Origin: a virus
Lineage: Duplodnaviria; Heunggongvirae; Uroviricota; Caudoviricetes
Length of the DNA stretch: 39,402 nucleotides
Direction: 5' to 3' (one strand)
Virus record (IMG/VR): IMGVR_UViG_2541047754_000004
Shown: piece after piece, positions 3,386 through 38,933 of the stretch
How positions within the stretch are numbered: the stretch's first letter is position 1
How the letters are laid out: each line of letters opens with the position of its first letter
The notes under the pieces: generated by a model
The model's input: the letters and a program-made list of their open reading frames with translations, nothing else
What the model was told of the DNA's origin: nothing
The model's database searches: none
Position numbers and translations under genes: made by a program

Positions 3386-4581
3386 GACTCCACCGTTATA
3401 ACGATATTTTCCGGGGTACAGGACGTAGATTCGTTGTATCTGATATCAATGTTTGATGACGACAAAGCCCCCGGGGATTTCCCAATCGTCAGTTCCTGAA
3501 TATCGTAATAGCGTGCATTCCCGCCACTCACCACGCCAAGATTCGCCGGTGAGTAAATGCGACTTAAAAGGACCGAATCACCAATCATCAGACTATTGAT
3601 ATAGTCGGAAATAGCCTGCTGGATCTGCTGCCCTATCTGTGAGGTATAACCCGTAAAAACTTTTAATTTAATCCGGGCGTAAACAGGCACATCACTGGAA
3701 CGCGAGAATTTGATTACATGGGGATTGCCGTATTTATCCGGAACCGTAACGGATGTTGTACCGTGAGTGGCTGTCCCCTGGCCTTTATTTCCTCTGATAG
3801 CCTGAGCAATATCCGTCACATCACCGCCATCCACAATTACAGCAACAGAGTGTGGCGGTAACCCGTTACCGTCCTCCGAACCAGTATCGTTTTCATAGAG
3901 TTTGTGGCGGGTTACACCGGTAACATTAGAAACAGCACCATCCAGTGCTTCAAATGGGGTTATTGATGGCAACGCAACACTTTGCGACTGGCGGATACGT
4001 AACTCCGCATCAGTTTCTGCTGGAGTGCCTACAGTAGCTGCAGCAGGATTGGTTACCGAAACCCAGCCACGGGTTGGCGTATTAATTTCAGTGATAGTTC
4101 CAGCCAGCGCCGCCACTGCACCACTGACAGAACATTTTGCGGTCACCATCACTGTACCATCCACGCCGACCACCACTGAAGCAGGCAAACGCCATATCAC
4201 ATTATTACTGTCTTTCACGCTGCCATTAATGATGGTTGTTCCGGCAGTTCCTGTAAGAAGCAAATCAACCGTAGAATTCGTCGCGCCTTTACGTGAAATA
4301 CCATTTATTTTCACGTTACTGGTCAGTGCAGCCCCATAGCCGGTTGCCGGTGAAAAACAGTTGTAGACAGTTATCGCCATATTATTGGCATCATGAATCG
4401 CCAGCGCCATCAGAGCCACCATCTGGCCGTCTTTGCTGTCCGGTTCGAGGTAGGCATCACTGCCATAAATCTGCTGAAAATAGCTAATCAGGGTGCTGAG
4501 TATCGTCTGATAATCAGGCGCACTGATCCCCTCCGCGGTTACCTTTGCAGATAAACCGAGAGAATCAAGGTTCAGAGCCAT
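3382..4581 (-). CDS. Baseplate J-like protein
   Basis: 399 aa; position and size match the baseplate J family in a V-W-J-I-H order. Confidence 0.8.
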   Translation of the reverse strand: MALNLDSLGLSAKVTAEGISAPDYQTILSTLISYFQQIYGSDAYLEPDSKDGQMVALMALAIHDANNMAITVYNCFSPATGYGAALTSNVKINGISRKGATNSTVDLLLTGTAGTTIINGSVKDSNNVIWRLPASVVVGVDGTVMVTAKCSVSGAVAALAGTITEINTPTRGWVSVTNPAAATVGTPAETDAELRIRQSQSVALPSITPFEALDGAVSNVTGVTRHKLYENDTGSEDGNGLPPHSVAVIVDGGDVTDIAQAIRGNKGQGTATHGTTSVTVPDKYGNPHVIKFSRSSDVPVYARIKLKVFTGYTSQIGQQIQQAISDYINSLMIGDSVLLSRIYSPANLGVVSGGNARYYDIQELTIGKSPGALSSSNIDIRYNESTSCTPENIVITVES

Positions 4582-4934
4582 TACGCCTCCGATGTAACAG
4601 TCGTTATTCCATAGAGAGTGTCGATTTCAGCGGAAAACATGACACGTCGGGTCGTGGTATCCACCGTCGTATTGAAAGAGAGGATTGATTTAACGCCCTG
4701 CGTTTCCAGAATGCGTTTTCTGATCGCTAGGTTGTAAGTTTCCGGTTTTTGCCTGCCCAGCACAGACTGGATCCACGGAGTCCCTTCGGTAGTGTCGAGA
4801 AACCATTGCCCATACCACAATTCGAATCGCGTTTTCACAGCCTGCGCCACGGCCTCAGGCGAGTTAATCAGCCAGGTGTCATCACCGCTGCCAAAGGTGT
4901 AATCGCCATCGGCGTCTTCACGTCTGTATCGCAT
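4581..4934 (-). CDS. Baseplate protein (W/gp25-like position)
   Basis: 117 aa; PEAVAQ..R....GEWFLD-like core; translationally coupled to neighbours. Confidence 0.65.
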   Translation of the reverse strand: MRYRREDADGDYTFGSGDDTWLINSPEAVAQAVKTRFELWYGQWFLDTTEGTPWIQSVLGRQKPETYNLAIRKRILETQGVKSILSFNTTVDTTTRRVMFSAEIDTLYGITTVTSEA

Positions 4935-5686
4935 CAGTTTACCCCGTCGGTACTGCTTCCACCGCGCTGAACACCGCCATGAGTGTGCGTATCATCGATT
5001 GGCTTGCCGTTAGCCTTAACGCTCCCCAAGAACTCAACAGCACCAGTGATTTTTGAAGCCACGCCAGAAACAACAGACCCCACCATGCCCCCCATCCAGG
5101 TTAACAGGCCATGAATGGTTACTTTCTCAGAAAAATCAGCCAGAGGGGCGACCACATCAAGCCCCCCGGGAGCGACAATTTTAATTTTCCTGGTATCAGG
5201 ATTAAGCTCAAAATAGGTGCTGCCGTCGTCACTACGCAACTGTGTGGCACTGGTATTAATACCGCTAATCTTCCTTGCCTGCGACTGGGGACCGACAATA
5301 CAAAACGAATCCGATAAATCATGCATTCTGTCATCAACAGGCTCCTGTATCCCGCCGTTCTGCCACCAGAAATCAATACAACGATCGGCAAAAACGACAA
5401 GACACTCATCCCCGGCTTTTATCGGAAAAGTCAACGTACAGCCTCCGCCGCGCGGGAATACCACTGGCACATCCACCAGCAATGGGTAATTTTTGGTAAT
5501 GCGGCTGCCGTCATTATCCTTTTCAACCGAACGGATAGCAGGCTGCACAACCGCCGTCACCGCATCAGGATCGAATGACTGAATAATGCCAGGCAAGGCG
5601 ACACGGATCTGGTTTTTAATGGTTTCCCGCTCGGATTTGAATGTTTCAGCAAGGTCGCCGCTGCGGGTCTGGTCGGATACTGCCAT
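4934..5686 (-). CDS. Baseplate central spike (gpV/gp138-like)
   Basis: 250 aa; Gly-rich C-terminus with THTHGG motif typical of spike tips; position upstream of W-like gene. Confidence 0.75.
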   Translation of the reverse strand: MAVSDQTRSGDLAETFKSERETIKNQIRVALPGIIQSFDPDAVTAVVQPAIRSVEKDNDGSRITKNYPLLVDVPVVFPRGGGCTLTFPIKAGDECLVVFADRCIDFWWQNGGIQEPVDDRMHDLSDSFCIVGPQSQARKISGINTSATQLRSDDGSTYFELNPDTRKIKIVAPGGLDVVAPLADFSEKVTIHGLLTWMGGMVGSVVSGVASKITGAVEFLGSVKANGKPIDDTHTHGGVQRGGSSTDGVN

Positions 5687-23261: not shown

Positions 23262-23664
23262 ACTTCCCACCTCCGCCATTACGGGGTGTTGTTGAAAGGC
23301 GGGCCCTGCGTATACGCCCGTAGGATTGGGGTATGAACCGTCCTTCGGTGGGCCCTGAATACAAAAAAAGTTCGCCATAGCGAACCTTGTTAAATTTGTT
23401 AAAAAAGGATGTTATTTAACATAATGTACGTTATAGTAACCACACGATCACCGCTCGCAATAGATTTGCGATGAAAGGCCTATTTAATCAACTTAAGTGG
23501 TCCAGAATGGCGAAATTCGAGTGAATAAAAGGTGCATAAAAAAGGGCAAAAACTGCATAGCGTTTTTTCGCGACGAAAACCCTGTTTTATTAACTTTTAC
23601 TGAGAATAGAGCATTAAAAAAGCCCCAATGATTTGGAGCTCTTCGTTGAGGTCAGAAATTCAAC

Positions 23665-24099
23665 TCATACCAGCGTAGCGCAGTTTTTGCGTAGCGCACT
23701 AATACTTTTTTCATCCCTTTGAATTTCGACCTCAGGATCCATCTGAAGGCTCACACCCAGCATGCAGAGACACCCCTCAATGAATCCCTCAGCTACCTGC
23801 AACTGCTGGCGGATAAATCCTTCAGAACAGCGACGCCGCCGCCCTATCTCACGTTTGCTTAACCCGTAGACGTAGTACAGCATAATGACGTCCAGTTCCT
23901 CAGGCTTACGGACCTGCTGCAGTCGACAGACGCAAGCATCGATAATCAGGCCATCGTCGTCACAGCAACTCAGCCTGCCAGGCGAGCTGCTGACTACCAG
24001 CCCTTTAAATCCCGCCGCTATTGGAGCCCAGCTCACTGTGGTGTTGCTATTGGCAGCCCAGCCACCCCAGCGCTCTAAAACCTGTTGAATATTACGCAT
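23665..24099 (-). CDS. Late-gene antiterminator, Q-like (small QuuD / phage 82 type)
   Basis: 144 aa; MRNIQQVLERWGGWAAN...IAAGFKGL...CCDDD motif matches small Q-family proteins as recalled; sits upstream of lysis cassette. Confidence 0.85.
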   Translation of the reverse strand: MRNIQQVLERWGGWAANSNTTVSWAPIAAGFKGLVVSSSPGRLSCCDDDGLIIDACVCRLQQVRKPEELDVIMLYYVYGLSKREIGRRRRCSEGFIRQQLQVAEGFIEGCLCMLGVSLQMDPEVEIQRDEKSISALRKNCATLV

Positions 24100-24152
24100 A
24101 GCTCTGACCTCTACGTTTTGCTACGAAAAAATTTTCTGAGAACTACGTCTGT

Positions 24153-24172
24153 TTATCCGTGGGTGTGGATAA
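24153..24172. promoter_or_regulatory. DnaA-box pair (one perfect TTATCCACA on minus strand plus an inverted degenerate copy)
   Basis: gTTTATCCgtgggtgtGGATAAcg. Confidence 0.4.
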
Positions 24173-24230
24173 CGCAGTTCCGATTCACATATTGCATGTA
24201 TCAACATGCAAAAAGTTGCTAATGCGGAGT

Positions 24231-24418
24231 GGAACCACCTGCCCCCACCTGGAACCACCTTTTCCTAACCTTTCCCTCAATCGACTTATATATATATATG
24301 GGGTTTCTAGTAGAAAGGCGGTTCCAGTGGTTCCAGTGGTTCCGCCCCGCTTGCCACAAGGTCTGCAAGGTGGAACCACCTTCTCTTTTAGGTGGTTCCG
24401 CGTGGTTCCAGCGGTTCC
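24231..24418. repeat. Iteron-like array of GGAACCACC / GGTGGTTCC / GGTTCCAGT repeats flanking a (TA)n tract; candidate replication origin
   Basis: At least nine GGWWCC-core copies in both orientations within about 190 bp, three tandem 9-bp units at 24319-24347, (TA)5 tract at about 24288-24299. Confidence 0.55.
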
Positions 24419-26574
24419 CAAACCTTGCATTTTTTCCCCCCAATTCGCCTTTGGGCACGCTTATACCCGCAATTTTGCAAAACATTACTAATTCGCATTT
24501 CTTCGCGTTTTCCGATGCGGTCAGGATTTAGCCCAATCGCATCACGCAAAACATCACTTGCGCGTAAAAATTCGCAATTTCGCGGAAGTTCATTAGTCAT
24601 CAGGTCTGGCGTGTCGAGCCATTTCTCTACCGTTTCAAGCCAAGCATCCTTGATGGTGTACTGTTCATGGACACTCGCTGCCAGTTGTTCAGCCTCACGG
24701 AACTGGATACCCCCCAGACGCTGAAACACCTCACGAGCCTCAGCCCAAAGTAAAAGTAGATCTCTTTTTATCGCTTTCACGTCGACTTTCGACACTTCCA
24801 CGGGGAGCCAGCGACGGTTACCAGTCTTGTCCGCAAGGAATTCGTCCTCATTGGTGGTACCAACGAACACCAGGCGACGAGGAAACTGGGTGGCGAACTC
24901 CCGGTATTTCGGGATCCAGTTTTCGTGAGTACGCGTCACAAACGCTTTGATTGACTCCAGCTCTTTGGTATTAAGTCCGCGCAGTTCACCAATCTCTGCC
25001 ACCAGCCGACCACGCATTTTTCGAGCGAGATCATCGTCTTTTTCGGCAAAAGAGATTTCAGTAAAAAACGCAGGATCAGGGCTCAGTGCCTCCACTCCGG
25101 AAGACTTACCGCAGCCCTGCGGACCAACGAGGATCGGCACCATATCCGCTTTGATGCCTGGCTCCAGTACTCGCCCCGCCAACGCGGTCCACATGTACAT
25201 AGACACCGCACGGGTATAAGGCGTGTCGGCTGTACCGAAGTGCGTATGGTAGAAACATTCGATGCGCGGCACGCCATCCCACTCCAGTCCGTTCAGCCAG
25301 GTGATCGCTGAATCGAATGGTTGTTCATCGGCTGCAAGTAACACCACATCGCGAATAAGTTCACGACCAACAGGTTTAAATCCCCGCTTTTCCATCGTGA
25401 TGCGCAGGCGCGCATAATCCGCATCGGTGAATGCCCGCCATTGTCCGGATCCTGCAGGGGCAAACATGATTTCGTCGCGGAACTGGTCAAAGCGAATATC
25501 GATGTCCACAAAATCAGGGCGTACTACTGCTTTGGCTGCGTTGCTGATTGTTGCCTCGATACGCCCCCATTTATCACGCTCGAAAGCAGGCAGCGGTAAA
25601 GGTTCCGCCACTTCGGTGCTGGTCAGATCTTCGAAATCGTCGTTGCGGATCCCGATGGCATTAAGGAAATCTCCGTCATCACGATGCGCACAACTGGCAT
25701 GCAGGCATTTAAAATGCCCCTGCTCAAAGCCCGCGGTTCCCGCAGGAAAATAAACTGTGCTTGTTGGATCGCCCCCGCTACTGTGGCCGTCTTCAAACGG
25801 ACAGCGGATATATCGTTCACCATTTGCGCCATCCAGCAGCGTCCAGCCATTGGCATCAAGATATTCAGCTGTATCATCCGTCGCGCCGGGCGTGAATGCT
25901 GATCGGTCGCGCATCTTCGTGTTGCCCGCTTCGGTGGTTACCGACACAGGGAGTTGTTCAGCCAGGCGCTGCCACAGCGTTTCAAGCTGCTCACCAGTAA
26001 TAGCCGGAGGTTCATCCGGCAAACCGCCGTCCCATTCAATACGCGCGCCGCTGCTGTGCGTACCGCAGGCAACGAACTGCTGCCCGTTCGCCAGCAACTC
26101 GATAATGCCCATATCCCCCGCCAGGCGATGGATACGCTTACGGAAATCACCATCAACGGCCAGCAGATACAGACACTTATTACTGTTTGCTCGCCAGCGT
26201 CGCGGCGGCAACTCACCCAGAAGTTGCACAAGCGTTTTGCGAATATCTGCCTGAATGTCTTCATCTTCGCTATCACAGTCCAGCGCCAGCCAGCCATGGC
26301 CTGTACGCACGCAGATGCCATAATCCGGTTCATTCGACCAGCGGGCAAAATCATGCTCAGTAACAACATGCCCGGTCCATTGAGCAATACCGGTGACCTG
26401 GCGGTCCCGGTTATAGCGACTCGGCGTCTTACCCAACGCTTTCAGTTTACTATCAGGGGATATGGTCGCACTGGGGTTACATACAACTGGGAGAAGATGA
26501 TCAGTTCTCCCCAATACCAGGTCGAAATGAAACCACTCATCAGGCGTAGCTCCCCATGGTTTGCTATCGGACAT
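24388..26574 (-). CDS. Replication protein: primase-like N-terminus fused to VirE/D5-type P-loop NTPase
   Basis: 728 aa; Walker A VGPQGCGKSS, Walker B-like and NRRWLPV motif; Cys/His cluster CPFEDGH...HFKCLHASCAH; acidic DCDSEDED in N-terminal domain. Confidence 0.82.
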   Translation of the reverse strand: MSDSKPWGATPDEWFHFDLVLGRTDHLLPVVCNPSATISPDSKLKALGKTPSRYNRDRQVTGIAQWTGHVVTEHDFARWSNEPDYGICVRTGHGWLALDCDSEDEDIQADIRKTLVQLLGELPPRRWRANSNKCLYLLAVDGDFRKRIHRLAGDMGIIELLANGQQFVACGTHSSGARIEWDGGLPDEPPAITGEQLETLWQRLAEQLPVSVTTEAGNTKMRDRSAFTPGATDDTAEYLDANGWTLLDGANGERYIRCPFEDGHSSGGDPTSTVYFPAGTAGFEQGHFKCLHASCAHRDDGDFLNAIGIRNDDFEDLTSTEVAEPLPLPAFERDKWGRIEATISNAAKAVVRPDFVDIDIRFDQFRDEIMFAPAGSGQWRAFTDADYARLRITMEKRGFKPVGRELIRDVVLLAADEQPFDSAITWLNGLEWDGVPRIECFYHTHFGTADTPYTRAVSMYMWTALAGRVLEPGIKADMVPILVGPQGCGKSSGVEALSPDPAFFTEISFAEKDDDLARKMRGRLVAEIGELRGLNTKELESIKAFVTRTHENWIPKYREFATQFPRRLVFVGTTNEDEFLADKTGNRRWLPVEVSKVDVKAIKRDLLLLWAEAREVFQRLGGIQFREAEQLAASVHEQYTIKDAWLETVEKWLDTPDLMTNELPRNCEFLRASDVLRDAIGLNPDRIGKREEMRISNVLQNCGYKRAQRRIGGKKCKVWEPLEPRGTT

Positions 26575-26577
26575 GGG

Positions 26578-26790
26578 TTAAGCCTTTTTATCGTTTTGTG
26601 AGCCATACAACAGCCAATTAGGGTCGCAATCCAATGCTATAGACATTTCAAGAAGATAACGTGGCCGAGCAATAACACCACTTTCAATTCTGTTTATTGC
26701 CTGCTGGCTCACTCCTGTGAGCTCAGCCAACGTAACTTGCGTCATTTTGAGTTCTTTACGTCGTTCTTTTACTCGGGTCGCTAAGGTCAT
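26578..26790 (-). CDS. Cro-like HTH regulator (XRE family)
   Basis: About 70 aa from ATG at 26790 with GAGGTG upstream (ORF track extends to TTG at 26808); HTH LAELTGVSQQAINRIESG. Confidence 0.75.
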   Translation of the reverse strand: MTLATRVKERRKELKMTQVTLAELTGVSQQAINRIESGVIARPRYLLEMSIALDCDPNWLLYGSQNDKKA

Positions 26791-26829
26791 TGCTTTCACC
26801 TCATACAATTTTAGTGGTATTTAGCAACA

Positions 26830-26864
26830 ACAAACGAGGTTTGTCAAATACAACAAAAATTGTT
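26830..26864. promoter_or_regulatory. Putative operator palindromes in cI/cro divergent region
   Basis: ACAAAC-GAG-GTTTGT (26830-26844) and AACAA-AAA-TTGTT (26852-26864). Confidence 0.45.
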
Positions 26865-26910
26865 TTTAATGTGGGGATACACATTAATACAACCCAGAAG
26901 GACTAATCCC

Positions 26911-27534
26911 ATGTCTCTCGCAGCCCGTTTTAAAGCACGTCGTTTGGAATTAGGAATGACTCAAGTGGAAGTAGCGAATTCTGCAGGGGTTAGCCAACAA
27001 TCCATAGAATCCATCGAAAGTGGACGAACCAGAAAGCCACGCAATCTTCTGGATCTGGCTAAGGCCTTGAAATGTAGCCCAGACTGGCTACTGAACGGTA
27101 AAAATATTATGCCTCTCGCGGAGATAAGTACCAGACGCATACCTATATTAAGTTACGTTCAGGCAGGAGAGCTTACAGAAGCAAGAGACATAACAGATCT
27201 GACAGGGGAATTTGAATATATTTTGGCAGACTCTGACATTCCAGAAACATGCTTCGCATTACGTATCGATGGCGACAGCATGCAACCAGAGTTTAAAGAA
27301 GGAGACATTGTTATCATCGATCCTGATCTATGTCCTGCACCAGGGGAGTTTGTTGTCGCCAAAAACGACGGTCACGAAGCTACATTTAAAAAATACCGTC
27401 CATTAGGAATCGGCATCGACGACTTTGAATTAATCCCCCTAAATCCTGATTACCCTATTTTTCGTAGTGCAGATATGAACTTACAGATCATAGGTGTAAT
27501 GATCGAACACCGTATTTACCGCCGTAAACGTTAG
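26911..27534 (+). CDS. CI-like repressor, N-terminal HTH plus LexA-type S24 autopeptidase domain
   Basis: 207 aa from ATG at 26911 (AGAAGGA upstream); HTH QVEVANSAGVSQQSIESIESG; DGDSMQP catalytic Ser motif and downstream Lys. Confidence 0.88.
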   Translation: MSLAARFKARRLELGMTQVEVANSAGVSQQSIESIESGRTRKPRNLLDLAKALKCSPDWLLNGKNIMPLAEISTRRIPILSYVQAGELTEARDITDLTGEFEYILADSDIPETCFALRIDGDSMQPEFKEGDIVIIDPDLCPAPGEFVVAKNDGHEATFKKYRPLGIGIDDFELIPLNPDYPIFRSADMNLQIIGVMIEHRIYRRKR

Positions 27535-27655
27535 TATTCCCACCGTAAATATCGGGAGGCGTAACAGCCTCCCTTACCCCATTTGTAAAGTCTTACAAAT
27601 TAAATTCACTTAAATATCAATAAAGTAGTATTCACACCCCATAAAATACCACATT

Positions 27656-28134: not shown

Positions 28135-28317
28135 GTGCTCCCCGATATGAAAAAAGGAATACAACCGATGAAACCTGAACACATCCATCGACTGACGGGG
28201 CGCGATGTTCTCCGTTATCGCAGTAAAAACTTCGATTTGATGACCGGTCTGGCCGTTGCCACTGCGCTCGGTCTGATCATCACTTTCATTCTCCTTGTAG
28301 CGAGGACCACAGTATGA
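28135..28317 (+). CDS. Small C-terminally membrane-anchored protein
   Basis: 49-60 aa depending on start; C-terminal hydrophobic helix LAVATALGLIITFILLVA; ATGA coupling to next gene. Confidence 0.45.
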   Translation: MLPDMKKGIQPMKPEHIHRLTGRDVLRYRSKNFDLMTGLAVATALGLIITFILLVARTTV

Positions 28318-29216
28318 GTTTAGAAACCAGTCTAGAACTTAATAATCAACTTCTGGCACAACATAATGCGCTGCTTGAACGTCTTATCCGCACAATGGCA
28401 TCAGGCATTGTTATGCATCCTGACACGATTTCACGAGTGCAGGAATGTCGGGATACAGCAACTGAAACTGAAAATATGTCAGCGGCAATGACACTGGATG
28501 ATCTGGAGTTCAGCGACGTTATCGCACTGGCTGGTTTCTACCCGGTAGCCACCCCTATCACAGAAGACATGCTGCAACGTGCTGTTGCCTACCGTGATGC
28601 TGAAGGCGATAAACGAGTAGTTCAGATTGATGCTCTCGACAGCGCATTGCAGGGCGTCAAACGAGCCAGGGCGCTGCTTAAACCTGCTCTCCTGGACCTG
28701 TCCCGTAACATCCTTAAGTTCTGGGACGACCTGCCAACCATCGGCGAGCGACGTGCTTTTGCCGAGCAGCTACTTGATGCACCTGCGGATGGGCGTGATG
28801 AAGTTAAGCCGAAAAAGGCCAGTAACAAAGATGGAGAACGCACGGGGCCGTTTTACGTCAAAAATGTATCCGGCACAGCAGCCAGTGAACTCCACACCTT
28901 ACGCAAGTTGAACGAGATGCTTAAAAAAGGCCATATCGAGATCAACCGTGTTGAGTACCTTCAGCTGCAGGAAGAATTTGCACGCAGAGACGCAGCAAAT
29001 TCCAGCCAGAATAATGACGCCAAAGATGACCATACAATTGATTTCGCGGCACTACGCAAACAAGCTGAAGGGTTGATCCTCCAGTTAGCAAAAGGGGGTT
29101 ACCGGGCAGAAGCTATTGCAATTCTGGAAAAACAGGGAGCCAGGAAACTTGGTGAAGTAACGGATGAAAATCTCGCTGAAGTAATCACCCTGGCTGAAAA
29201 AGCACTGGAGGGTTAA
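28314..29216 (+). CDS. Hypothetical early protein
   Basis: 300 aa; no motif recognised; first gene of the coupled replication block. Confidence 0.55.
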
Positions 29217-29218
29217 TC

Positions 29219-30520
29219 ATGCCAGACGTTCACGCACAACTTTCTCCATCATCAGCGCATCGATGGATGCGCTGCCCAGGAAGTCTGGCGCTGGAGGCCA
29301 CACAACCGGATAAAGAAACAACTTTTGCAATCGAGGGCACTGCAGCGCACGCGCTTGCTGAAAAAGTTCTACGAAACAGGCAAAGCCACCCGGAACACTA
29401 CGCCGGATGCAATGTTTCTATGTTTCTCGGCTCATACCCCCTTCGCGAAAATCCTGATGATAAATCGGGCCCACAGGTGGATGATGAAATGGTCGAAGCC
29501 GTCGGCCGGTATGTTGATACGGTCTGGACTCTTGCAAAGAATAATGAACTATTGGTTGAACAACGTGTTGATTTCTCACATATAACGGGTGTGGAAGAAT
29601 CTTTCGGAACTGCCGACGGCATAATCATCGCTGGTAACGAATTACAAATCCACGACCTGAAATATGGCAAAGGCGTCCGCATTGATGCAGAACAAAATGA
29701 GCAACTACAACTGTATGCTCTGGGTGCGCTTGAACAATTCAGCATGCTGTATGACTTTGAAACTGTAAGATTATTTATTCACCAACCAAGGCTCAACCAC
29801 GTTTCAGAATGGTCGTTAACCGTACAGGAACTTCAGTCTTTCGGTGAACGGGCGCTGGAGGCCGCAACCAGTGCGATCCTTGTTCTCAATATTGCTGAAT
29901 GCGAAGGCATTGAGACACTACCGCTGGAAAACTTCATACCTGGAGAAAAACAGTGCCGCTTCTGTAAAGCAAAAGCTATTTGCACTGCCCAGAAAATGCA
30001 GCATTTACAAACAGCGGCCAGCGATTTTGAAGATCTGACAAAGCCTGTCAGCGAAATAATCACCAATGCCAGCGCACGTGTACCTCTGTTAACCATTGAG
30101 CAGCTTGCAGAGATCTATAGCCAGGCCGACTTTATTGAATCCTGGCTAAAGGCAGTACGGGACCGGGTTCACAATGAACTCAATGCCGGACATCCGGTAC
30201 CGGGGTTTAAACTGGTAACAGGAAAACAAGGTAACCGGGCCTGGAGTGACGAAGAGGCAGCTCGCGCACTTCTGAAGGACCAGTTCAGGTACAAAACTGA
30301 AGAAGTATTCGACTTTAAACTTATTAGTCCCACAAAAGCCGAAAAACTTATCAAAAAGGCCAGTCCGCGCCGTTGGTCAAAAGTCGAGGCACTGATAACA
30401 CGAGCTGATGGTAAACCAACCGTCGTTCCCGAGTCAGACCCACGCCCCGCACTCAATATCAACCCTGTAAATGATTTCGACGACGTATCCGACGATACGC
30501 TAACCGCAGACCTCATCTGA
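29219..30520 (+). CDS. Cas4-like PD-(D/E)XK nuclease (DUF2800-type)
   Basis: 433 aa; N-terminal [22 protein letters not shown] nuclease core, C-terminal [10 protein letters not shown] cysteine cluster. Confidence 0.8.
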
Positions 30521-30535
30521 TTTAAGGAAATACCC

Positions 30536-31084
30536 ATGAAACTGAAGCTGAACAATGTTCGTCTGGCCTTCCCGTCTCTGTTTGAAGCTAAAACAGTAAA
30601 CGGCGAAGGCGATCCACGTTTCTCCGCAGTATTTTTAATGTCACCCAAACACCCACAACTGGAAGAAATCCGTAAAGCTATGAAGCAGGTAGCGAAGGAA
30701 AAATGGGGGGAGAAGTGGGAGTCCATTTATAACCAGCTGGAGAAAAAACTCAATCTGTGCCTGCATGATGGTGATGAAAAAGCAGAGTATGAAGGCTTCC
30801 CCGGCAATTTCTTCCTGAATGCTGCTAACAAAGCGCGCCCAGCTGTTCTTGATCGCGATCGTTCGCCACTTATTCAGGCTGATGGACGTCCCTATGCAGG
30901 GTGCTATGTAAACGCCGTTATCGATATCTGGGCACAGGACAATAATTTCGGTAAACGCATTAATGCCTCACTCGGCGGAGTCCAGTTCCTGCGAGACGGC
31001 GATGCATTCGCTGGCGGCGGAGTGGCAAGCGCTGACGATTTCGACGATATCAGCGAAGGCGCAGACGCCGATACGCTCATTTGA
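30536..31084 (+). CDS. DUF2815-type protein (putative ssDNA-binding) of the PolA module
   Basis: 182 aa; acidic C-terminal tail DDFDDISEGADADTLI; conserved position after DUF2800. Confidence 0.72.
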   Translation: MKLKLNNVRLAFPSLFEAKTVNGEGDPRFSAVFLMSPKHPQLEEIRKAMKQVAKEKWGEKWESIYNQLEKKLNLCLHDGDEKAEYEGFPGNFFLNAANKARPAVLDRDRSPLIQADGRPYAGCYVNAVIDIWAQDNNFGKRINASLGGVQFLRDGDAFAGGGVASADDFDDISEGADADTLI

Positions 31085-31099
31085 GTAACAATGCAGCCC

Positions 31100-31600
31100 T
31101 CATTGAATTGGGGGCTGTTTAGATTCCTGTTCCTCTTTCAATGAACGAACTTTGCTATCATATATCCTGAGTGCATATTCGTTAATTTGCCTAGTTAAAT
31201 CGGAATCTAGCTTATAATATTTTTCAGCCCACTCAATTAAATTCTTCCTCATTATTATCTTCGGTTCAATTTTATTAATTCTATTTAAATGCATATCACG
31301 ACCGCGTTCAAAATTAAGATATGCTTGTTCACTAACGCCCTGTCCATCGATTGTGTAGGTAGTACCACTTGCACGGAAAGAGAGATGAGTCTTTTTACCA
31401 GCATATCTTTCATTATGTATAGCTTTATCGGTATTCACTATTCGAAGCCATGTCCAAAACTCATCATTAAGAATGTATTTATCAATTATTTTTAATATTA
31501 AAAAATCTCTACCTATTAGTAATAGAGGCATCAAAAAATAAACCCCAAGAAAACTCAACGCCGCTGTAATAATAGTTGAAAAAGATATTGATAACTCCAT
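31100..31600 (-). CDS. Membrane-anchored hypothetical protein (cargo gene)
   Basis: About 166 aa from ATG at 31600 (GGAG upstream); one N-terminal TM helix; AT-rich; opposite strand to flanking replication genes. Confidence 0.6.
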
Positions 31601-31621
31601 TTTACTCTCCAAAGGTTAGAC

Positions 31622-33685
31622 ATGAACAATATACTATGGGGCGACCTGGAAACCTATTGCGAAATCCCGATTACGAACGGCACCCATGCGTATGCCGAAG
31701 GCGTTGAAGTGATGCTTTTCGCATGGGCTATCAACGACGGGCCAGTAAACGTGTGGGATATCACTGCCGGAGGTGGTATTCCACACGGCTTATACGAAGC
31801 AATCGCAGACCCTGAAACCCTGCTTTATTTCCATAACTCTCACTTCGACCGCACCGTTCTGCGTTATGCAATGCCGCGACTGGCACCGCCAGTCGAACGT
31901 TGGCGCGACACGATGGTGCAGGCGCTGGCGCACGGTCTCCCGGGGGCTCTGGGGGAACTCTGCGAAGTACTAGGCGTCCCGCAAGACAAAGCGAAGGACA
32001 AAGAAGGTAAAGCGCTGATCCAGCTGTTCTGTAAGCCACGCCCGAAAAACAGCAAACTGCGTCGGGCCACCAGTAAAACCCACCCGGAAGAATGGCGGCG
32101 CTTTGTTGCTTACGCCGGACTGGATATCGAGGCAATGCGCGAAGTCTATAAACGTCTGCCGAAGTGGAATTATCAGGGGACAGAACTGGCGCTCTGGCAT
32201 CGTGATCAGCAGATCAATGACCGGGGCGTCTGCATGGACATGCAACTCGCACGCGCTGCGATCGAAGCGGTAGACCAAGAACAAAAGCGCCTGGCAAAGC
32301 GTACACAGGAAATGACTGATGGCGAAGTGCAGGCAGCCACACAACGAGACGCGTTGATTAAGCACATTGTTGAATCCTACGGTGTGGAGCTACCAGACAT
32401 GCAACGCAGTACTCTGGAACGTCGTATTGCCGACCCCGATTTACCATCTGCCGTGAAAGAACTGCTGGCTATCCGCCTGCAAGCCAGTACTACCAGCACC
32501 AGTAAATACAAGGCACTGATGAAAGGCGTAAGCCACGACGGGCGCTTACGCGGTACGCTACAGTTCTGCGGGGCGTCACGTACCGGTCGTTGGGCCGGAC
32601 GGCTATTCCAGCCCCAGAACCTTCCCCGCCCTTCACTAAAACAGGAACAAATAGACGAAGGCATCGAAGCACTGAAAGCCGGATGTGCAGACCTGCTGTT
32701 TGACAATATCATGGAACTAACCAGTTCAGCGTTACGTGGCTGCATTATCGCGCCAACAGGCAAAAAACTGGTGGTAAGTGACTTGTCAAACATTGAAGGC
32801 CGTATGCTGGCATGGCTGGCGGGAGAGGAATGGAAACTGAATGCATTCAGAGAGTACGACGCCGGAACGGGTCCGGACTTATATAAACTGGCGTATGCAA
32901 AAGCTTTCGATATTGCACCAGATGATGTTGATAAACACATGCGTCAGATCGGTAAAGTCATGGAACTCGGTCTGGGTTATGGAGGTGGTGTAGCGGCTTT
33001 CATCACTTTTGCTCTGGTTTACGGTCTCGATCTCGACGAGCTGGCGAACGCCGCACTGCCAAACATTCCCCGCGATGTTATCCGCGAGGCGAAAAGCTGG
33101 TACGACGAATCGGTTAAACGCAAGTCAACCTACGGGCTTTCTGAACGGGTATTTATCGCCTGCGACTCACTTAAACGTCTCTGGCGCAGGGCGCACCCGG
33201 CGACCTGCGATTTCTGGTACGAACTGGAGCGCACCGTCCGCACAGCAATCGCCACACCGCAAAAAACATTGTATTGCGGCTATCTTAAAATCCGACGTGA
33301 TGGCGCGTGGCTGCGCATACAGCTACCATCCGGACGCGCTGTATGCTACCCGTCTCCGGTTATCGAAAAAGGGAATATCACCTACATGGGTGTTAACTCT
33401 TATTCGCGTAAATGGCAACGACTCAAAACCTACGGCGGAAAGCTGGTGGAGAACGTCACCCAGGCAGCCGCCCGCGACGTTCTGGCCGGAAACATGCCGC
33501 TTATCGAAGATGCCGGTTACAGTATTGTGTTGACGGTACACGACGAGGTGATCACCGAAGCACCTGACACAGAAGATTTCAACGATAAAGCGCTTTCCGC
33601 GCTTCTCTCCACTAACCCCGAATGGGCACCCGATATTCCGCTGAATGCTGGCGGCTTTGAGGCGTACCACTACCGTAAGGAGTAA
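31622..33685 (+). CDS. Family-A DNA polymerase with 3'-5' exonuclease domain
   Basis: 687 aa; exo motif WGDLETY, motif [17 protein letters not shown], motif C TVHDEV. Confidence 0.9.
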
Positions 33686-33692
33686 TACAAAG

Positions 33693-34721
33693 TCACTTAA
33701 AATCCCTAGATAACATCTGCGAAGCAGCTGATGCTGTATAAACTCCAGTATGTTTTATTTCTGCAGCTATTTTGTAGCCATCCTCCTTAAACTGCGTAAG
33801 CATTGAGCTTAAGGAACCAAGTTTTTTAGTATTCAACACCATTCTAACGACAGTTCCTTCATGATAATGACCTAACTCTATATGCTTCTTTCCGTGTTCA
33901 TCTAGATATATTGCATGGTCACCGCTACAAATAAGAAAACTACCGCCAAGTTTACATATACGGCTGATCATATAAAGGCCAAATCCCGAATTATGCCAAG
34001 GATTTCTTGTATTGATTCTCGCCCCCTTAAAATTTTTACTAGAAATAGATGGCATTAACGCTAACTGAATGGCTTCAGAATCATTATCAGCTTCTATATA
34101 AGGGTTCTTCGATAGAGATTTTTTCATTCCTATACCATTATCAGAAATTGTTATTTCAACACGGTCATAAGAAGGCCAATACTGTGCACAATATTCAATC
34201 ACCTTTGAATCACTATGTTCCACAACATTACGCATAATTTCCCTAATAGAAAATGTCAAAGCATCAATGAGGTCGCCTTCTTCTTGGCGAGCAAGAATCT
34301 TTGCTAATTTACCAGATCGTTCCTCAACTATCTCTTGCACCTCAGTATATTTATCGTTAGCTTCATCTATAACTGTTTGAACACGAAGAATTGTAAATGG
34401 AACAAAATTATTATTTCCATCTGTACATCCCGGTTCACGGCCATGCTTTAACCCGAAGGCTCGAAAGAATGCCATATTTGCGGCATAATCCTTATTCTCA
34501 TGCCCGCTACAAAAAAGTTTAAAACCATCAATGTTCTTTTTCTGTTTTCGATGGAAGTCTCGAATATGCTTAGCAACATAAACCATTGTAAATGGTTCAA
34601 TCCTTCCCATATGCGAAAAATCGATTGTTATTTGCTGTTGACCTGAATGTTTTTCAATTTCATTGCAAAAATTAAATATCTTTTCAGGATTACATGAAGA
34701 GGGAAATAAGATTCGTGACAT
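33693..34721 (-). CDS. GHKL (histidine-kinase-like) ATPase domain protein with unknown N-terminal domain (cargo gene)
   Basis: 342 aa; ATG at 34721 with AAGGA upstream; motifs RNVVEHS, ITISDNGIGM, NSGFGLYMISR; AT-rich; opposite strand. Confidence 0.7.
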   Translation of the reverse strand: MSRILFPSSCNPEKIFNFCNEIEKHSGQQQITIDFSHMGRIEPFTMVYVAKHIRDFHRKQKKNIDGFKLFCSGHENKDYAANMAFFRAFGLKHGREPGCTDGNNNFVPFTILRVQTVIDEANDKYTEVQEIVEERSGKLAKILARQEEGDLIDALTFSIREIMRNVVEHSDSKVIEYCAQYWPSYDRVEITISDNGIGMKKSLSKNPYIEADNDSEAIQLALMPSISSKNFKGARINTRNPWHNSGFGLYMISRICKLGGSFLICSGDHAIYLDEHGKKHIELGHYHEGTVVRMVLNTKKLGSLSSMLTQFKEDGYKIAAEIKHTGVYTASAASQMLSRDFK

Positions 34722-34781
34722 ATTAATTCCTTATACTTGTTTTATTTGATACTACCCAATAAGTGTTAACAAGGCAAATTT

Positions 34782-35069
34782 ATGTCTTATGAACGTGAGA
34801 GCCTTATCGAAAAGCACCTCGTCGCTGAAGTGAAAAAGGCTGGCGGTGTGGCCTTTAAGTTCGTATCTCCCGGTCGCCGCTCGGTACCGGATCGCATTGT
34901 TCTGCTACCCGGCGGCCGTCTTGTTTTCGTTGAATGCAAAGCACCCGGCAAAGCACCACGCGCCGACCAGTTGCGCGAGCACGAGCGGCTGCGCGAGCTG
35001 GGCTTTACCGTGGTGGTGCTGGATAGCAAAAATCTGGAGGAAATTATTTTAAGCCGCAATAAAAGATAA
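34782..35069 (+). CDS. VRR-NUC domain nuclease
   Basis: 95 aa; PDRIVL...FVECKAP (D...ExK). Confidence 0.8.
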   Translation: MSYERESLIEKHLVAEVKKAGGVAFKFVSPGRRSVPDRIVLLPGGRLVFVECKAPGKAPRADQLREHERLRELGFTVVVLDSKNLEEIILSRNKR

Positions 35070-35081
35070 AAGACTTATGCT

Positions 35082-35879
35082 TTAATCCGTATTTTTAACA
35101 CGTGTTTCGAAACACTCTTTTAATTTAGCTATTTCCTTTTTAGAGGACATGACTGTGAATTTCATCCCTTTTAAATCATTAACAAATTCAAATTTTGCGC
35201 TATTGGACTCACAATCACCAACAACAAAACCACTACCAAATGAATTGAGCAACACTTTAGTATTACTACCATCTACCATATAATATTCGTTATTTTTAAA
35301 TGCAGTAACCTTCCCGAAGGTATAGCTCAATATCAATAATGTCATCACCCCTAAAGGAAAAGCTGATTTTAGGATTTTTAAATCGATATAATAAAATACG
35401 TCTTTATACTCTGCAAGCCTCCCAAATTTTCTAATGCTATCCATATGATGTTCGTGTCTCTTACTATGGATTGACGCGGACACCGCATTGTGGTAATTCA
35501 ACAAAAGCAGAGCAAATAATAAAATATCTCCAACACTCATCACAGAGGTTTCGGAGAAATAACCAAAAGGCCAATGGAATCCTATTATGTAAAAATTAGG
35601 TATTAGCATAACCACTATAAATATAATAAATGGAACATAATATTTCCCTTTCAAATCAAACATCAATGTCGCGTATAAGGCACCGAGAAATAAAAAACTA
35701 AAAAACAAAAGCCATACAGCCGAATACAATAGCGTATTTAAATCTATTTTAATAAAAAGGGCTGGATAGCCATAATACGATGCAACACCTTTCTGAAAAG
35801 AATATGCCATCGCATAAGCTAACGCTGAAAAAACAGTTAATAAAGAAACTTGTTTTGTAAGTATTTTTGCCAGGGGCAT
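35082..35879 (-). CDS. Polytopic membrane protein with soluble C-terminal domain (cargo gene)
   Basis: 265 aa; ATG at 35879 with GGAGG upstream; several hydrophobic helices in first about 150 aa; AT-rich; opposite strand. Confidence 0.65.
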   Translation of the reverse strand: MPLAKILTKQVSLLTVFSALAYAMAYSFQKGVASYYGYPALFIKIDLNTLLYSAVWLLFFSFLFLGALYATLMFDLKGKYYVPFIIFIVVMLIPNFYIIGFHWPFGYFSETSVMSVGDILLFALLLLNYHNAVSASIHSKRHEHHMDSIRKFGRLAEYKDVFYYIDLKILKSAFPLGVMTLLILSYTFGKVTAFKNNEYYMVDGSNTKVLLNSFGSGFVVGDCESNSAKFEFVNDLKGMKFTVMSSKKEIAKLKECFETRVKNTD

Positions 35880-35941
35880 ACCCGCCTCCGTTAGTTATAT
35901 ATAGAGAGAGAATTGACACATATTCTACCATAGGTATATTA

Positions 35942-37336
35942 ATGAATAACATATTCCACCCCCGACTTTATCAAAACCTCATAATCAATCACCAAACCGA
36001 CATTCTGCGCGGCAACATCTGGGCAGGGATGGGGATGGGTAAAACCGTAGCGACACTCACCACGCTGGAAGATCTTTTCATGGCTGGAGCAGAAACACAC
36101 CCCGCGCTGGTCCTCGCGCCGCTACGCGTTGCAGCAAGCACCTGGCCTGATGAAGCTGTTAAATGGGGGCATCTGCGTAATATTGAGGTACAGCCGATCA
36201 TCGGTAACGCCAAAGCGCGCTCTACGGCGCTGGCGAACAGCAACGCGAGCGTGTTCACCATCAACTACGATAACCTTGTCTGGCTGGTTGAAGAATTGGG
36301 AGAACGATGGCCGTTCGGAACTGTCATTCCAGATGAAAGCACCCGGCTAAAATCCTTCCGGCTGCGAGGTGGTGGTAAGCGCGCGGCGGCGCTGGGCAAA
36401 GTGGCGCATAAGTATGTCCGGCGCTGGATAAATCTCACCGGTACGCCAGCACCGAACGGCCTGGTAGATTTGTGGGGACAATCGTGGTTTGTGGACCAAG
36501 GGCAACGTCTCGGGCGCACTTACGGCGCGTTTACCTCACGCTGGTTCAACTCGATACAGTTTCCGGGACAGAGCTGGACTAAACTGGAACCTTTTGCTCA
36601 CTCACAGGGTGAAATACAGCGAGCATTAGCCGATGTGACCCTCTCGCTGGATGCGGCCGACTGGTTCGATATCAAAGACCCCATCCATAACGTAATCCGC
36701 GTGGATATGCCCCCGAAGGCCCGTCAGCAGTATCGTGAAATGGAAAAGGAAATGTTCCTCGAGCTGAATAGCGAAGGCATCGAAGCACCGAACGCCGCGG
36801 CAAAGACACTGAAGTGTCTTCAAATCGCTAGTGGCGCAGTATACACAGACGACACCGGAAGTTGGTCAGAACTGCATGACACCAAACTACAGGCGCTGGA
36901 CAGCATACTGACCGAAGCAGCTGGCGCACCTGTGCTGGTTGCTTATCACTGGAAACACGATCTTGAACGCTTGCTTAAAGCATTCCCTCGCGGTCGTCAC
37001 CTCGACCAGGATCCACAGACACTGCGCGACTGGAATTCCGGAAAGATTCCTGTTCTCTTTGCACACCCAGCCAGCGCGGGCCACGGCCTGAACATGCAGG
37101 ACGGCGGAAATATACTGGTATTTTTCTCACACTGGTGGGACCTGGAGCAATATCAGCAAATTATTGAACGTATCGGCCCCACCAGGCAGATACAGGCCGG
37201 ACACAATCGTCCGGTATTTATTCACCACATTATTGCTGCCGACACTATGGACGAAATGGTGATGGAGCGGCGCAACTCAAAACGAACAGTGCAGGACATC
37301 CTGCTCGATGCCATGAAAAAGAGAGGTATAGCATGA
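35942..37336 (+). CDS. SNF2/DEAD-like superfamily-2 helicase
   Basis: About 464 aa from ATG at 35942; GMGMGKT (motif I), VIPDES (II), LTGTP (III), AGHGLN (VI); start uncertain (ORF track gives TTG at 35867). Confidence 0.82.
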   Translation: MNNIFHPRLYQNLIINHQTDILRGNIWAGMGMGKTVATLTTLEDLFMAGAETHPALVLAPLRVAASTWPDEAVKWGHLRNIEVQPIIGNAKARSTALANSNASVFTINYDNLVWLVEELGERWPFGTVIPDESTRLKSFRLRGGGKRAAALGKVAHKYVRRWINLTGTPAPNGLVDLWGQSWFVDQGQRLGRTYGAFTSRWFNSIQFPGQSWTKLEPFAHSQGEIQRALADVTLSLDAADWFDIKDPIHNVIRVDMPPKARQQYREMEKEMFLELNSEGIEAPNAAAKTLKCLQIASGAVYTDDTGSWSELHDTKLQALDSILTEAAGAPVLVAYHWKHDLERLLKAFPRGRHLDQDPQTLRDWNSGKIPVLFAHPASAGHGLNMQDGGNILVFFSHWWDLEQYQQIIERIGPTRQIQAGHNRPVFIHHIIAADTMDEMVMERRNSKRTVQDILLDAMKKRGIA

Positions 37337-37533
37337 GCGAGAAACCCGACGATTTACTCACCCCGGATGAAGTATGCCAAAAGTTAGGTATTACACAGAA
37401 AACGCTATGTGAGTGGAATATTAAGCATCGTCATCGGGCTATCCTGGCACCAATTCGTTTCAGTGCAAAAGTAGTTCGTTATGAGCGCCGAAATGTCGAC
37501 GCTTTTATTCAAAAATGTCGCAGCCAGTATTAA
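37333..37533 (+). CDS. AlpA/Xis-like small DNA-binding protein (putative excisionase)
   Basis: 66 aa; LTPDEVCQKLGITQKTLCEW HTH; ATGA coupled to helicase; adjacent to integrase. Confidence 0.7.
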   Translation: MSEKPDDLLTPDEVCQKLGITQKTLCEWNIKHRHRAILAPIRFSAKVVRYERRNVDAFIQKCRSQY

Positions 37534-38933
37534 CCTCGCCGCCGTAGCAATGCCACCTGCGCAAGTATGCTCCGCTCGTGAGCCTCGAAAGCTTCGCGCT
37601 TTAACGCAATCTCTTCCTGCAAAATCTCATCAGAAAAGTCGTAATGTTCTGCCATCGGGTCATCTGACTTGCTGGAGTGGTGAAGGCAAAGGAGGCTGAT
37701 TTCCCTTCGGTCTGATCGGGAATAGCCTCTTTCCTTCATCAAGGCAATAACATTGCTCTTAAGGAATTTACGGCACATCGTATTAAATGCACCGTCTTTC
37801 CCTTTAACAGTCCCATCATGTTTTATTCCTTTTACAGCCCCATCCGGGCTGTATGTTTTCACTAGCTTATCCAGTGATCGTTTTGAAAATGGCTGCATTG
37901 GATCACGCGGCTGCAAAAATACATAATCCCTGTTGCACTCAGGAACTGAATCACGCCAGGCTTTCTGCTCGTCGATAATCCGCCGGATCTCAGGCGTTAT
38001 CGGCAGGCGGAAAGCCTTTTGTGTTTTCATAGCCCCTCGCATGCCGATAACCCCTTCCGGATAAACAATTTCACCAGCCTCCTCGTGAACGTAGTCCCAG
38101 CGCAGGTTATGGACATTAATCGGACGAACACCAGTGATGATCATGAAGCGAACAGCATTCTTCTGGTGTACAGAGGTGCAGGCAGCAACATTGAGCCAGA
38201 GTCGGGCGATTGATTCAATATCGGTAAAAAGCCGTGTGGGGGTAGGTTTCTGTACGCGGGAGGAAACATAATCATCTGGCAGACTGGCGGCAACATTGCG
38301 GCCGTTGCAAAGAGTAGGTGCGCAGAACTTCCAGAACCGACGGAGCTCGGCAAACAACTCCAGGGCGTTATTGTTCGAGCGAGTGGCGATCCACTCGTCC
38401 AGCACTTCCACCAGCCGACTGTATGTTACGTCGCTGAACACCTCGCGCTCGCCGAACGTTGATTTAATCCGGTCGATACGCACCCCGTAGGTTGTGAAAC
38501 TGTCCGGGCTCAGCTTCTGACGGGCTACTTTGGCTTTGAGGTCATCCCGGTACATTTCCAGCGCTGCATGTACGGACTCTGCCCGCAGTCCACCGTCAGC
38601 CATACCTAGTGCTTTTTCGCGCGCCAGCTGGATAGCGAGCTCCGGCCACTCGCCGAGCTTTTTACCTTTGAGGCCCATCTTTTTTGGAAACTCGGCGTAA
38701 AATGTAACCTTACCGGCTTTGCTGAAATCGATACGGAGATAGTTCTCTTTTTCGTATTTGGAACGGCGAGCCACGCCGGAAGCAGCGAGGATGATTTTGG
38801 CGGCAGCAACACAGATTTTCATGTGTGCGCTGGTATAGGGGGGTTTACAGGCATCCCATTTTTCAGAAGCGGCTAAAACATCGTCATTATTGGGGCTATC
38901 CGGATTATGTGTTACAGTGCGCGGCATTCTCAA
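37530..38933 (-). CDS. Tyrosine integrase (phage integrase family)
   Basis: 467 aa; AAGGA upstream of ATG at 38933; C-terminal catalytic region with R...H..R...Y-type spacing; last phage gene before chromosomal yfhL. Confidence 0.85.
   Translation of the reverse strand: MRMPRTVTHNPDSPNNDDVLAASEKWDACKPPYTSAHMKICVAAAKIILAASGVARRSKYEKENYLRIDFSKAGKVTFYAEFPKKMGLKGKKLGEWPELAIQLAREKALGMADGGLRAESVHAALEMYRDDLKAKVARQKLSPDSFTTYGVRIDRIKSTFGEREVFSDVTYSRLVEVLDEWIATRSNNNALELFAELRRFWKFCAPTLCNGRNVAASLPDDYVSSRVQKPTPTRLFTDIESIARLWLNVAACTSVHQKNAVRFMIITGVRPINVHNLRWDYVHEEAGEIVYPEGVIGMRGAMKTQKAFRLPITPEIRRIIDEQKAWRDSVPECNRDYVFLQPRDPMQPFSKRSLDKLVKTYSPDGAVKGIKHDGTVKGKDGAFNTMCRKFLKSNVIALMKERGYSRSDRREISLLCLHHSSKSDDPMAEHYDFSDEILQEEIALKREAFEAHERSILAQVALLRRRG

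Follow-up and report, generated by a model that had tools for sequence, protein, structure and literature searches.

A putative iteron origin at the 3' end of a VapE-type primase/helicase gene in Escherichia coli prophages

The rep gene and its repeat array

The element considered here is a cluster of short repeats around a TA tract at the 3' end of rep, a primase/helicase gene in the 39,402-nucleotide viral sequence IMGVR_UViG_2541047754_000004 (Caudoviricetes), and the whole of that stretch is referred to below as the window. An earlier note, made from the sequence alone, had proposed a replication origin at this location composed of DnaA boxes, iterons and a (TA)n tract. The gene, its predicted C-terminal domain and the repeats are arranged as follows.

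24388..26574, minus strand: rep, encoding a 728-amino-acid initiator, primase-polymerase and superfamily 3 (SF3) helicase; stop codon at 24388-24390
24412..24561, minus strand: predicted C-terminal winged helix of Rep, about residues 672-721 (helix, helix, beta-hairpin by DSSP of the models)
24391..24418, minus strand: outer iterons 1-3 (GGAACCGCT, GGAACCACG, GGAACCACC), oriented like rep and overlapping its last nine codons
24372..24380, plus strand: outer iteron 4 (GGAACCACC), inverted, forming a 10-bp inverted pair with iteron 3 with the stop codon between
24317..24343, minus strand: inner left array of three tandem iterons with a 9-nt period, pointing at the TA tract and found in nearly all relatives
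24260..24316: central block of 57 bp with low GC, including (TA)6T at 24287-24299, a likely DNA unwinding element
24231..24259, plus strand: inner right array of three oppositely oriented iterons (10-nt period) that point back at the TA tract
24192..24211: palindrome TTGCATGT-ATCA-ACATGCAA with perfect 8-bp arms, past the right iterons

The hexamer GGAACC occurs 21 times in the 39.4-kb window and nine of these lie within 188 bp (24231-24418), with exact cores at 24231, 24251 and 24372 on the plus strand and at 24320, 24329, 24338, 24394, 24404 and 24413 on the minus strand. The 8-mer GGAACCRC was present 12 times against an expectation of 2.35 +/- 1.59, a count reached in none of 100 shuffles. 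Nine of these twelve fall in the same interval and the others are three singletons (15239, 16983 and 25733), with no second iteron cluster in the window. The clustering is real and far beyond chance. The description in the earlier note of at least nine GGAACC/GGTTCC-core repeats in both orientations was borne out by the nine exact cores and a degenerate tenth copy (GCCCCCACC, 24241-24249), which is the middle copy of the inner right array, as was that of three tandem 9-mers. The TA tract lies between the repeat clusters as had been described, and its length is (TA)6T rather than (TA)5.

The iterons are ten 9-mers of the form GGAACCRCN, ordered in gene direction as three direct copies, one inverted copy, three tandem direct copies, the TA block and three copies in the opposite orientation. 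The GC content is 0.35 over 24260-24319, and the convergent arrays have a strong hairpin or cruciform potential (DNA hairpin free energy -28.3 kcal/mol, fold z -5.07). Iteron 4 sits within a 16-bp near-palindrome, AAGGTGGAACCACCTT (24367-24382), and the CCACC half of the word is thus on both strands, where back-to-back binding by two winged helices might occur. The palindrome at 24192-24211 has counterparts in relatives, in which TTGCA...TGCAA or T-rich plus TTGCA elements occur at the same place; TTGCA was found in 11 of 57 loci against 3.6 expected, and the pattern TTGCA-N10-TGCAA was not enriched in the window. This palindrome was rejected as a CI/Cro operator as the cI-cro intergenic region has repeats of the ACAA...TTGT type, and a start site for the primase or a site used by an accessory factor are among its possible roles. 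The repeat element was also considered as a pac site or an attachment site and rejected, as it tracks the 3' end of rep and not the terminase or integrase genes.

Rep contains an archaeo-eukaryotic primase-polymerase (Prim-Pol) domain at residues 53-185 (PF09250, E 4e-10) and a VapE-type SF3 ATPase at residues 427-639 (PF05272, E 2.3e-60), matches PHROG 256/1156, and had no Toprim match in domain searches. The single match in the PDB by phmmer was 7PDS_A (E 8e-34 over residues 393-657), the cryo-electron microscopy structure of Rep from the Staphylococcus aureus pathogenicity island SaPI1 with DNA (PMC9371898). For an AlphaFold2 model of residues 420-728, with a predicted local distance difference test score (pLDDT) of 93.9, the best six Foldseek matches were 7PDS chains (TMq 0.72-0.77, top E 5e-22), followed by NrS-1, African swine fever virus PrimPol, poxvirus D5/E5 and SaPI5 PriRep (7OLA). 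The predicted C-terminal domain has winged-helix topology in the models (pLDDT 86-90) and, when modelled alone, its best Foldseek matches were winged-helix proteins, none of them significant (E >= 0.06). The second strand of the predicted wing, K714-P721, holds the variable residues K715-W719 (KCKVW), which are encoded at 24418-24432.

The C-terminus of Rep had been described as encoded by its own putative binding sites, and positions 24391-24418 do encode ...WEPLEPRGTT. The tail EPLEPRGTT beyond the wing is variable, modelled with lower confidence (pLDDT 78), and missing in relatives whose stop codon precedes the iterons; it is a passenger peptide, a by-product of reading into the repeats. 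The meaningful overlap between protein and iterons is the adjacent wing strand, not the tail.

Concerted switching of iteron word and wing residues

A natural exchange was found between the window and otherwise near-identical prophages, and it affects the following segment.

24187..24431: exchangeable cassette of 245 bp, the putative origin, comprising the last 14 rep codons, all iterons, the TA block and the TTGCA-N10-TGCAA palindrome

Rep of E. coli BH100N is identical to the window Rep up to ...RRIGGK (residue 714), after which KCKVW is replaced by MTRIF, and all repeats switch along with these wing residues from GGAACCACC to GTACCAAC. The two DNA sequences have 111 differences across 24050-24600, extending from about 24187 to 24431 with five outside that span, and only 3 differences in the remaining 2135 bp of rep. 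Among the E. coli prophages that share the region of the downstream Q antiterminator gene, all of the approximately ten copies switch in concert while the TA block is unchanged (alignment A2), the words being GGAACCAC in the window, GTACCAAC in BH100N, E62 and Z1322, and GTTACCAC in Sx181. Both cassette flanks in Z1322 are 96-100% identical to the window. This locus (E. coli Z1322HEC0009, 2878-5069) has the GTACCAAC cassette together with a rep annotated as frameshifted, and may be a decaying copy.

Comparison was extended by 22 genome loci and three further phages. The same layout was present 3' of rep homologues in Yersinia phage YeP4, APSE-1, Caulobacter and Acidovorax phages and 20 bacterial genomes, each lineage with its own word, and in an alignment of the C-terminal regions the residues after the conserved G-K of the wing track that word. 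Words are listed below with their carriers and, where aligned, the wing residues that follow the conserved G.

GGAACCACC: window, Trabulsiella and Photorhabdus caribbeanensis; KKCKVW
GTAACCACC: Xenorhabdus yunnanensis (L014); KVCKVW
GTTACCACC: KLMKVW
GTAGCCACC: Pluralibacter (L005); KMTKAW
TAGACCACC: Pectobacterium (L006); KQIRVW
GTAACAACC: APSE-1; KVCRVW or KSQRVY
GTACCAACC: Xenorhabdus and Photorhabdus (L007, L008, L015); K(V/M)(T/V)RIF
AGACAACCT: YeP4; KQQRIF
GTCACCACT: Burkholderiales (L012)
GTAGGAACA: Acidovorax phage ACF1

The same iteron is accompanied by the same wing motif even where the N-terminal thirds of the proteins are only 15-18% identical, as between L022 and the window and between L015 and L007, L008 or L029 (BH100N). 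In YeP4 and APSE-1 the synteny of cI, cro, rep, gap and (Q) is also shared, and the repeats are arranged in the same way around a TA tract 3' of rep. That tract was found in most relatives, and the sequence of the central block is kept across Enterobacterales relatives whatever their iteron word (conserved columns, alignment A2). In Trabulsiella, with a Rep 90% identical to that of the window, the iterons are the same. A further 80 IMG/VR loci, with homologues down to approximately 30% identity, were scored for an exact 8-mer in at least four copies between -60 and +400 of the rep stop codon. Such an 8-mer was detected in 52 of the 80 loci, in both orientations in 49, compared to one of 80 in an equal-sized coding control. 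Of 5426 complete E. coli genomes, 104 carry a prophage of this family, among them O103, O55 and enterotoxigenic strains.

These patterns suggest that BH100N represents a natural specificity swap, with the determinant located within the last 14 rep codons. The five wing residues are the candidate determinant because the tail, which is also changed, is dispensable in relatives. As the wing strand is encoded right beside the iterons, determinant and target would recombine as a unit, and by sequence comparison the two appear to move as one 245-bp cassette. A more speculative extension, which we regard as possible but put forward tentatively, is that K715-W719 and the adjacent 9-bp iterons form a minimal portable cassette shuffled among otherwise identical prophages and serving as a replicon identity tag, by which co-resident or superinfecting relatives or satellites might avoid or exploit each other's initiators. 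It would include a simple residue-to-base code, for example with K at the fourth wing position mostly accompanying ...CCACC words and R accompanying ...CAACC words, and such a code, if true, would be usable for designing orthogonal origins. Escherichia phage vB_EcoM-606R2 (4001-6600) shows exchange of a module larger than the 245-bp cassette: its rep shares only the N-terminal half (~53% identity) and has a different C-terminal half; its iterons, CCGTCACCT, flank two TATATATA tracts.

The inverted repeats could also be read as RNA or DNA structure rather than as protein-specific iterons, either as a structure between rep and Q that terminates or attenuates transcription or as a stem-loop recognized by the primase, as proposed for plasmid pRN1, which needs a stem-loop 3' of its Prim-Pol/SF3/winged-helix rep gene. 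Their hairpin potential is strong (z -5.07) and the concerted changes keep the arms complementary. A hairpin, however, needs neither tandem direct copies with a 9-10 nt period nor one identical word in each arm, and five residues of the protein covary with the word. In the window the hairpins are not followed by a U tract, and no family was matched in an Rfam scan of the whole window. Of the explanations considered in this report, structure in place of protein binding sites is the least probable and we judge it very unlikely.

Origin function and the surrounding prophage genome

In a temperate E. coli prophage of myovirus type, the interval 24187-24431 is very probably the origin of vegetative replication, with the product of the gene that ends inside it as the initiator. 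The call is strongly supported at the level of sequence and rests on initiator-helicase homology, conserved architecture and the concerted switching of iterons and C-terminal wing. In its core, an origin made of iterons, an adjacent primase/helicase and a TA-rich element, the earlier proposal is thus upheld through the homology to SaPI1 Rep, the conserved layout and the co-switching of iterons and wing. Some points weigh against this reading. For the isolated C-terminal domain, the winged-helix assignment depends on the predicted topology and on Foldseek matches that were not significant (E >= 0.06); the concerted change of inverted repeats would likewise preserve an RNA or DNA hairpin; the layout was undetected in 28 of the 80 distant viral loci, where the exact-8-mer criterion is crude; and rep is frameshifted in the cassette-swapped Z1322 locus (L032), so that function is not demonstrable for every recombinant.

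By analogy with SaPI Rep and the alpha protein of phage P4, the predicted winged helix would bind the 9-bp iterons GGAACCRCN, and K715-W719 in the last beta strand of the wing would largely determine which word is recognized. The inner arrays, which face each other across the (TA)6T block, would position two Rep hexamers, one per side, after which the TA tract would melt and the SF3 helicase would load itself, an arrangement compatible with bidirectional replication. First primers would be made by the Prim-Pol domain and extended by the phage family A polymerase with its single-stranded DNA-binding protein (SSB; 30536-33685) or by host polymerases. The outer four iterons at the rep stop codon are probably extra binding sites and in many relatives double as a hairpin ending rep. 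A T run after the outer inverted iteron pair, terminator-like in the gene sense, was observed in L002, L004, L005, L013, L015 and L029, and the window is without it.

The genes flanking rep and those in the opposite arm of the prophage are as follows.

23665..24099, minus strand: Q antiterminator (PF06530, E 8.7e-51), the next gene downstream of the putative origin
26578-26808, minus strand: Cro-like helix-turn-helix protein
26860-27534, plus strand: CI-like repressor
29219-30520: DUF2800/PD-(D/E)XK nuclease
30536-31084: Enc34-type ssDNA-binding protein
31622-33685: family A DNA polymerase
35867-37336: SNF2-related protein
37530-38933: integrase

Between cro and Q there is just one gene, the VapE/Prim-Pol rep, with no O or P homologue, and all genes nearby are on the minus strand except that of the CI-like repressor. 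The gap between rep and Q is 288 bp. In a promoter scan of 23500-27600 no sigma-70-like promoter was detected between rep and Q on the strand of the genes, and transcription of Q therefore probably passes through the putative origin. That Rep binding could affect late-gene activation, as the earlier note suggested, is speculative. In a terminator scan of the same interval the only terminator-like site in the origin region was antisense, and counts were equal to those of shuffles. Genes for terminase, portal, tail, baseplate and lysis are present in the window, and across the structural genes it is 97.5% identical to the isolated phage vB_EcoM-606R2; satellites such as SaPIs and other phage-inducible chromosomal islands, in contrast, are without virion structural genes of their own and depend on a helper phage. 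The opposite arm (28314-37336) encodes the prophage's own replication and recombination set.

Transcription towards Q would have to cross the putative Rep-bound DNA, and this brings in a second alternative, in which the repeats are mainly regulatory Rep-binding sites (for autoregulation, handcuffing copy control or a roadblock on read-through from rep to Q) and replication starts elsewhere. The hairpin formed by the outer iteron pair at the stop codon, followed by a T run in many relatives, would suit such a role. Against it, the element stays with rep whichever gene follows: this is Q in the window and a small helix-turn-helix open reading frame (ORF) in Trabulsiella, Yersinia and Pectobacterium, and in Caulobacter phages structural genes follow. 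A TA tract between convergent arrays is also the specific geometry of SaPI origins defined by experiment (PMC9371898), and the window holds no second iteron cluster. We consider a mainly regulatory role improbable; regulation as a side-effect is compatible with origin function and is not an alternative to it.

The DnaA boxes of the earlier note fall in the Q leader, which contains the two features below.

24164..24172, minus strand: perfect DnaA-box 9-mer TTATCCACA, in the Q leader and outside the cassette
24139..24181, minus strand: predicted 15-bp hairpin of the Q leader transcript, with the DnaA-box 9-mer in its 5' arm and loop

Of the two boxes that had been described, the perfect one is present as a single copy in the window (0.21 expected; at least one copy in 18 of 100 shuffles). 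The other (TTATCCGTG, 24154-24162), described as inverted and degenerate, differs from the 9-mer at 3 positions, fails the relaxed pattern TTWTNCACA and is not a DnaA box. The two sites form a 6-bp inverted repeat, TTATCC-N8-GGATAA. The Q leader (24100-24186, 87 bp) is 92-100% identical among prophages with different cassettes and Q alleles, and the block with the DnaA box was found in E. coli genomes only in the same 104 prophages, that is, in no independent context. Three ACGTAG repeats (24103-24148) surround the Q ribosome-binding site in this leader. The predicted hairpin had an RNA fold z of -3.35 against shuffles and was kept in an RNAalifold analysis of 7 variants, with 13 one-sided changes (mostly keeping the pairing by G-U wobble on the sense strand), 4 breaks and no double compensatory change. 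That the 9-mer is part of a Q-leader RNA hairpin is weakly supported.

A DnaA-assisted origin, in which host DnaA at 24164-24172 and the degenerate copy helps to open or regulate the origin as at oriC and several iteron plasmids, is the third alternative. The box is the sole perfect TTATCCACA in the window, lies approximately 60 bp from the nearest iteron and is retained in most E. coli copies. It is, however, outside the 245-bp cassette that travels with iteron specificity, and the right iterons lie between it and the TA tract, approximately 115 bp away. The box is missing from other genera: no TTWTNCACA was found within 420 nt after the rep stop in Trabulsiella, with its identical iterons, or in 20 other relatives, a distant hit in L011 being the one exception. 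Among 7 distinct leader variants from E. coli, 3 have the box decayed to TTATTCACG or TTATCCACG, and in two of these three the arm formed by the inverted copy is also lost. P4 alpha, a self-loading SF3 initiator, requires no host initiator. The self-loading SF3 initiator SaPI Rep likewise needs none (PMC9371898). The prophage also has its own nuclease, SSB, polymerase and SNF2-like protein, which makes the replication module largely self-contained and a DnaA requirement less expected. Assistance by DnaA is accordingly unlikely, if marginally less so than the two alternatives above. The inclusion of DnaA boxes in the origin is the part of the earlier proposal that did not hold up, and on these sequence comparisons the box is probably unrelated to origin firing and not part of the origin.

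Comparison with known replicons

Origins of this kind are already established in SaPIs and, in a looser sense, in P4 and pRN1. A specialist would expect the origin rather than be surprised by it, and no concept is overturned. A literature search found no paper that describes such an origin in E. coli prophages with VapE-type rep genes or in APSE, and none on VapE together with iterons. What is added here is a repeat architecture extending across the family, together with a cassette swap in nature that singles out the candidate specificity strand, narrowing specificity to a handful of residues in the last 14 rep codons and offering a possible route to orthogonal replicons. A putative origin is thereby placed for an E. 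coli prophage family and, by extension, for APSE phages from aphid symbionts, for YeP4-6 of Yersinia and for numerous uncultured viruses, which all share the SaPI layout. Annotation is affected as well, since ORFs called on this region are probably spurious. The hypothetical ORF 'P4' of APSE-1 (NC_000935, 3445-3666) sits on the (TA)n tract and the right-hand iterons, and is probably not a real gene. The origin given in the APSE genomics paper was placed by a skew tool only.

SaPI origins lie immediately 3' of rep and consist of 6-12 short iterons with an AT-rich region near the centre and at least two iterons per side in opposite directions; the C-terminal winged helix of SaPI Rep binds the iterons and the helicase loads itself, probably as one hexamer per side (PMC9371898). 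The sequence-level points of this description are all matched here, which supports the origin reading by analogy. As in the replicons of SaPI1 (Rep1) and SaPI5 (PriRep5), the initiator is a homologous SF3 helicase, and the repeats are directly 3' of rep (iterons 24231-24418, stop codon 24388-24390), a position shared by relatives. A winged-helix-like domain is predicted at the C-terminus of the window Rep, and covariation of its wing strand with the iteron word suggests that it may recognize the iterons. Three of the ten iterons on each side converge in opposite orientations on the AT-rich (TA)6T, and a primase is fused to the helicase as in SaPI5. Unlike a SaPI, the window is a complete temperate E. 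coli phage with its own polymerase and SSB rather than a satellite, its iterons are 9-mers rather than penta- or hexanucleotides with three of them overlapping the rep end, and it has an extra outer group of 3+1 iterons and a conserved non-iteron central block. Identity between SaPI1 Rep1 and the window Rep is only ~25%.

P4 alpha combines a primase, an SF3 helicase and a C-terminal winged helix in one polypeptide that binds short repeats in both orientations. The window shares the one-polypeptide organization, with its winged helix being predicted, and the short repeats in both orientations. The P4 primase is Toprim/DnaG-like whereas that of the window Rep is of the Prim-Pol type, and P4 needs a second cis site, crr, while the window has no second iteron cluster. 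P4 replication is independent of host initiators (summarized in PMC4234260).

The domain order Prim-Pol, SF3 helicase and (here predicted) winged helix is shared with ORF904 of pRN1 and the proteins of the Bordetella phages BIP-1 and BPP-1, as is a cis element, essential or proposed, that immediately follows the gene and folds into a long stem-loop. For BIP-1 a 'large stem-loop' 3' of the rep gene was proposed as the origin and it was explicitly stated that no iterons were found (PMC4234260). The stem-loop here, in contrast, consists of convergent arrays of a repeated 9-mer that tracks the protein wing, and Rauchvirus (BPP-1-like) phages of Caulobacter have Rep homologues with 46% identity. 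Convergent iteron arrays probably explain the BIP-1 'large stem-loop' also, and the stem-loop origin 3' of BPP-1-type rep genes may thus be read as an iteron array.

DnaA-dependent origins, whether of the oriC type or in iteron plasmids with DnaA boxes, differ in having one or more conserved DnaA boxes adjoining the unwinding element, which is not the case here. The origin of phage lambda, with iterons and an AT-rich region, lies in or abuts the initiator gene and belongs to the rightward early operon, where its place is between cro and Q. The window has no homologue of O or P, its iterons are 9 bp instead of the ~19 bp (18-19) of those inside the O gene and are at the 3' end of the gene, and the initiator is itself helicase and primase, so that recruitment of DnaB would not be needed. 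The putative origin and that of the lambdoid O type are alike in combining iterons with an AT-rich region, in their location between cro and Q, and in that the specificity determinant and its target would be inherited together.

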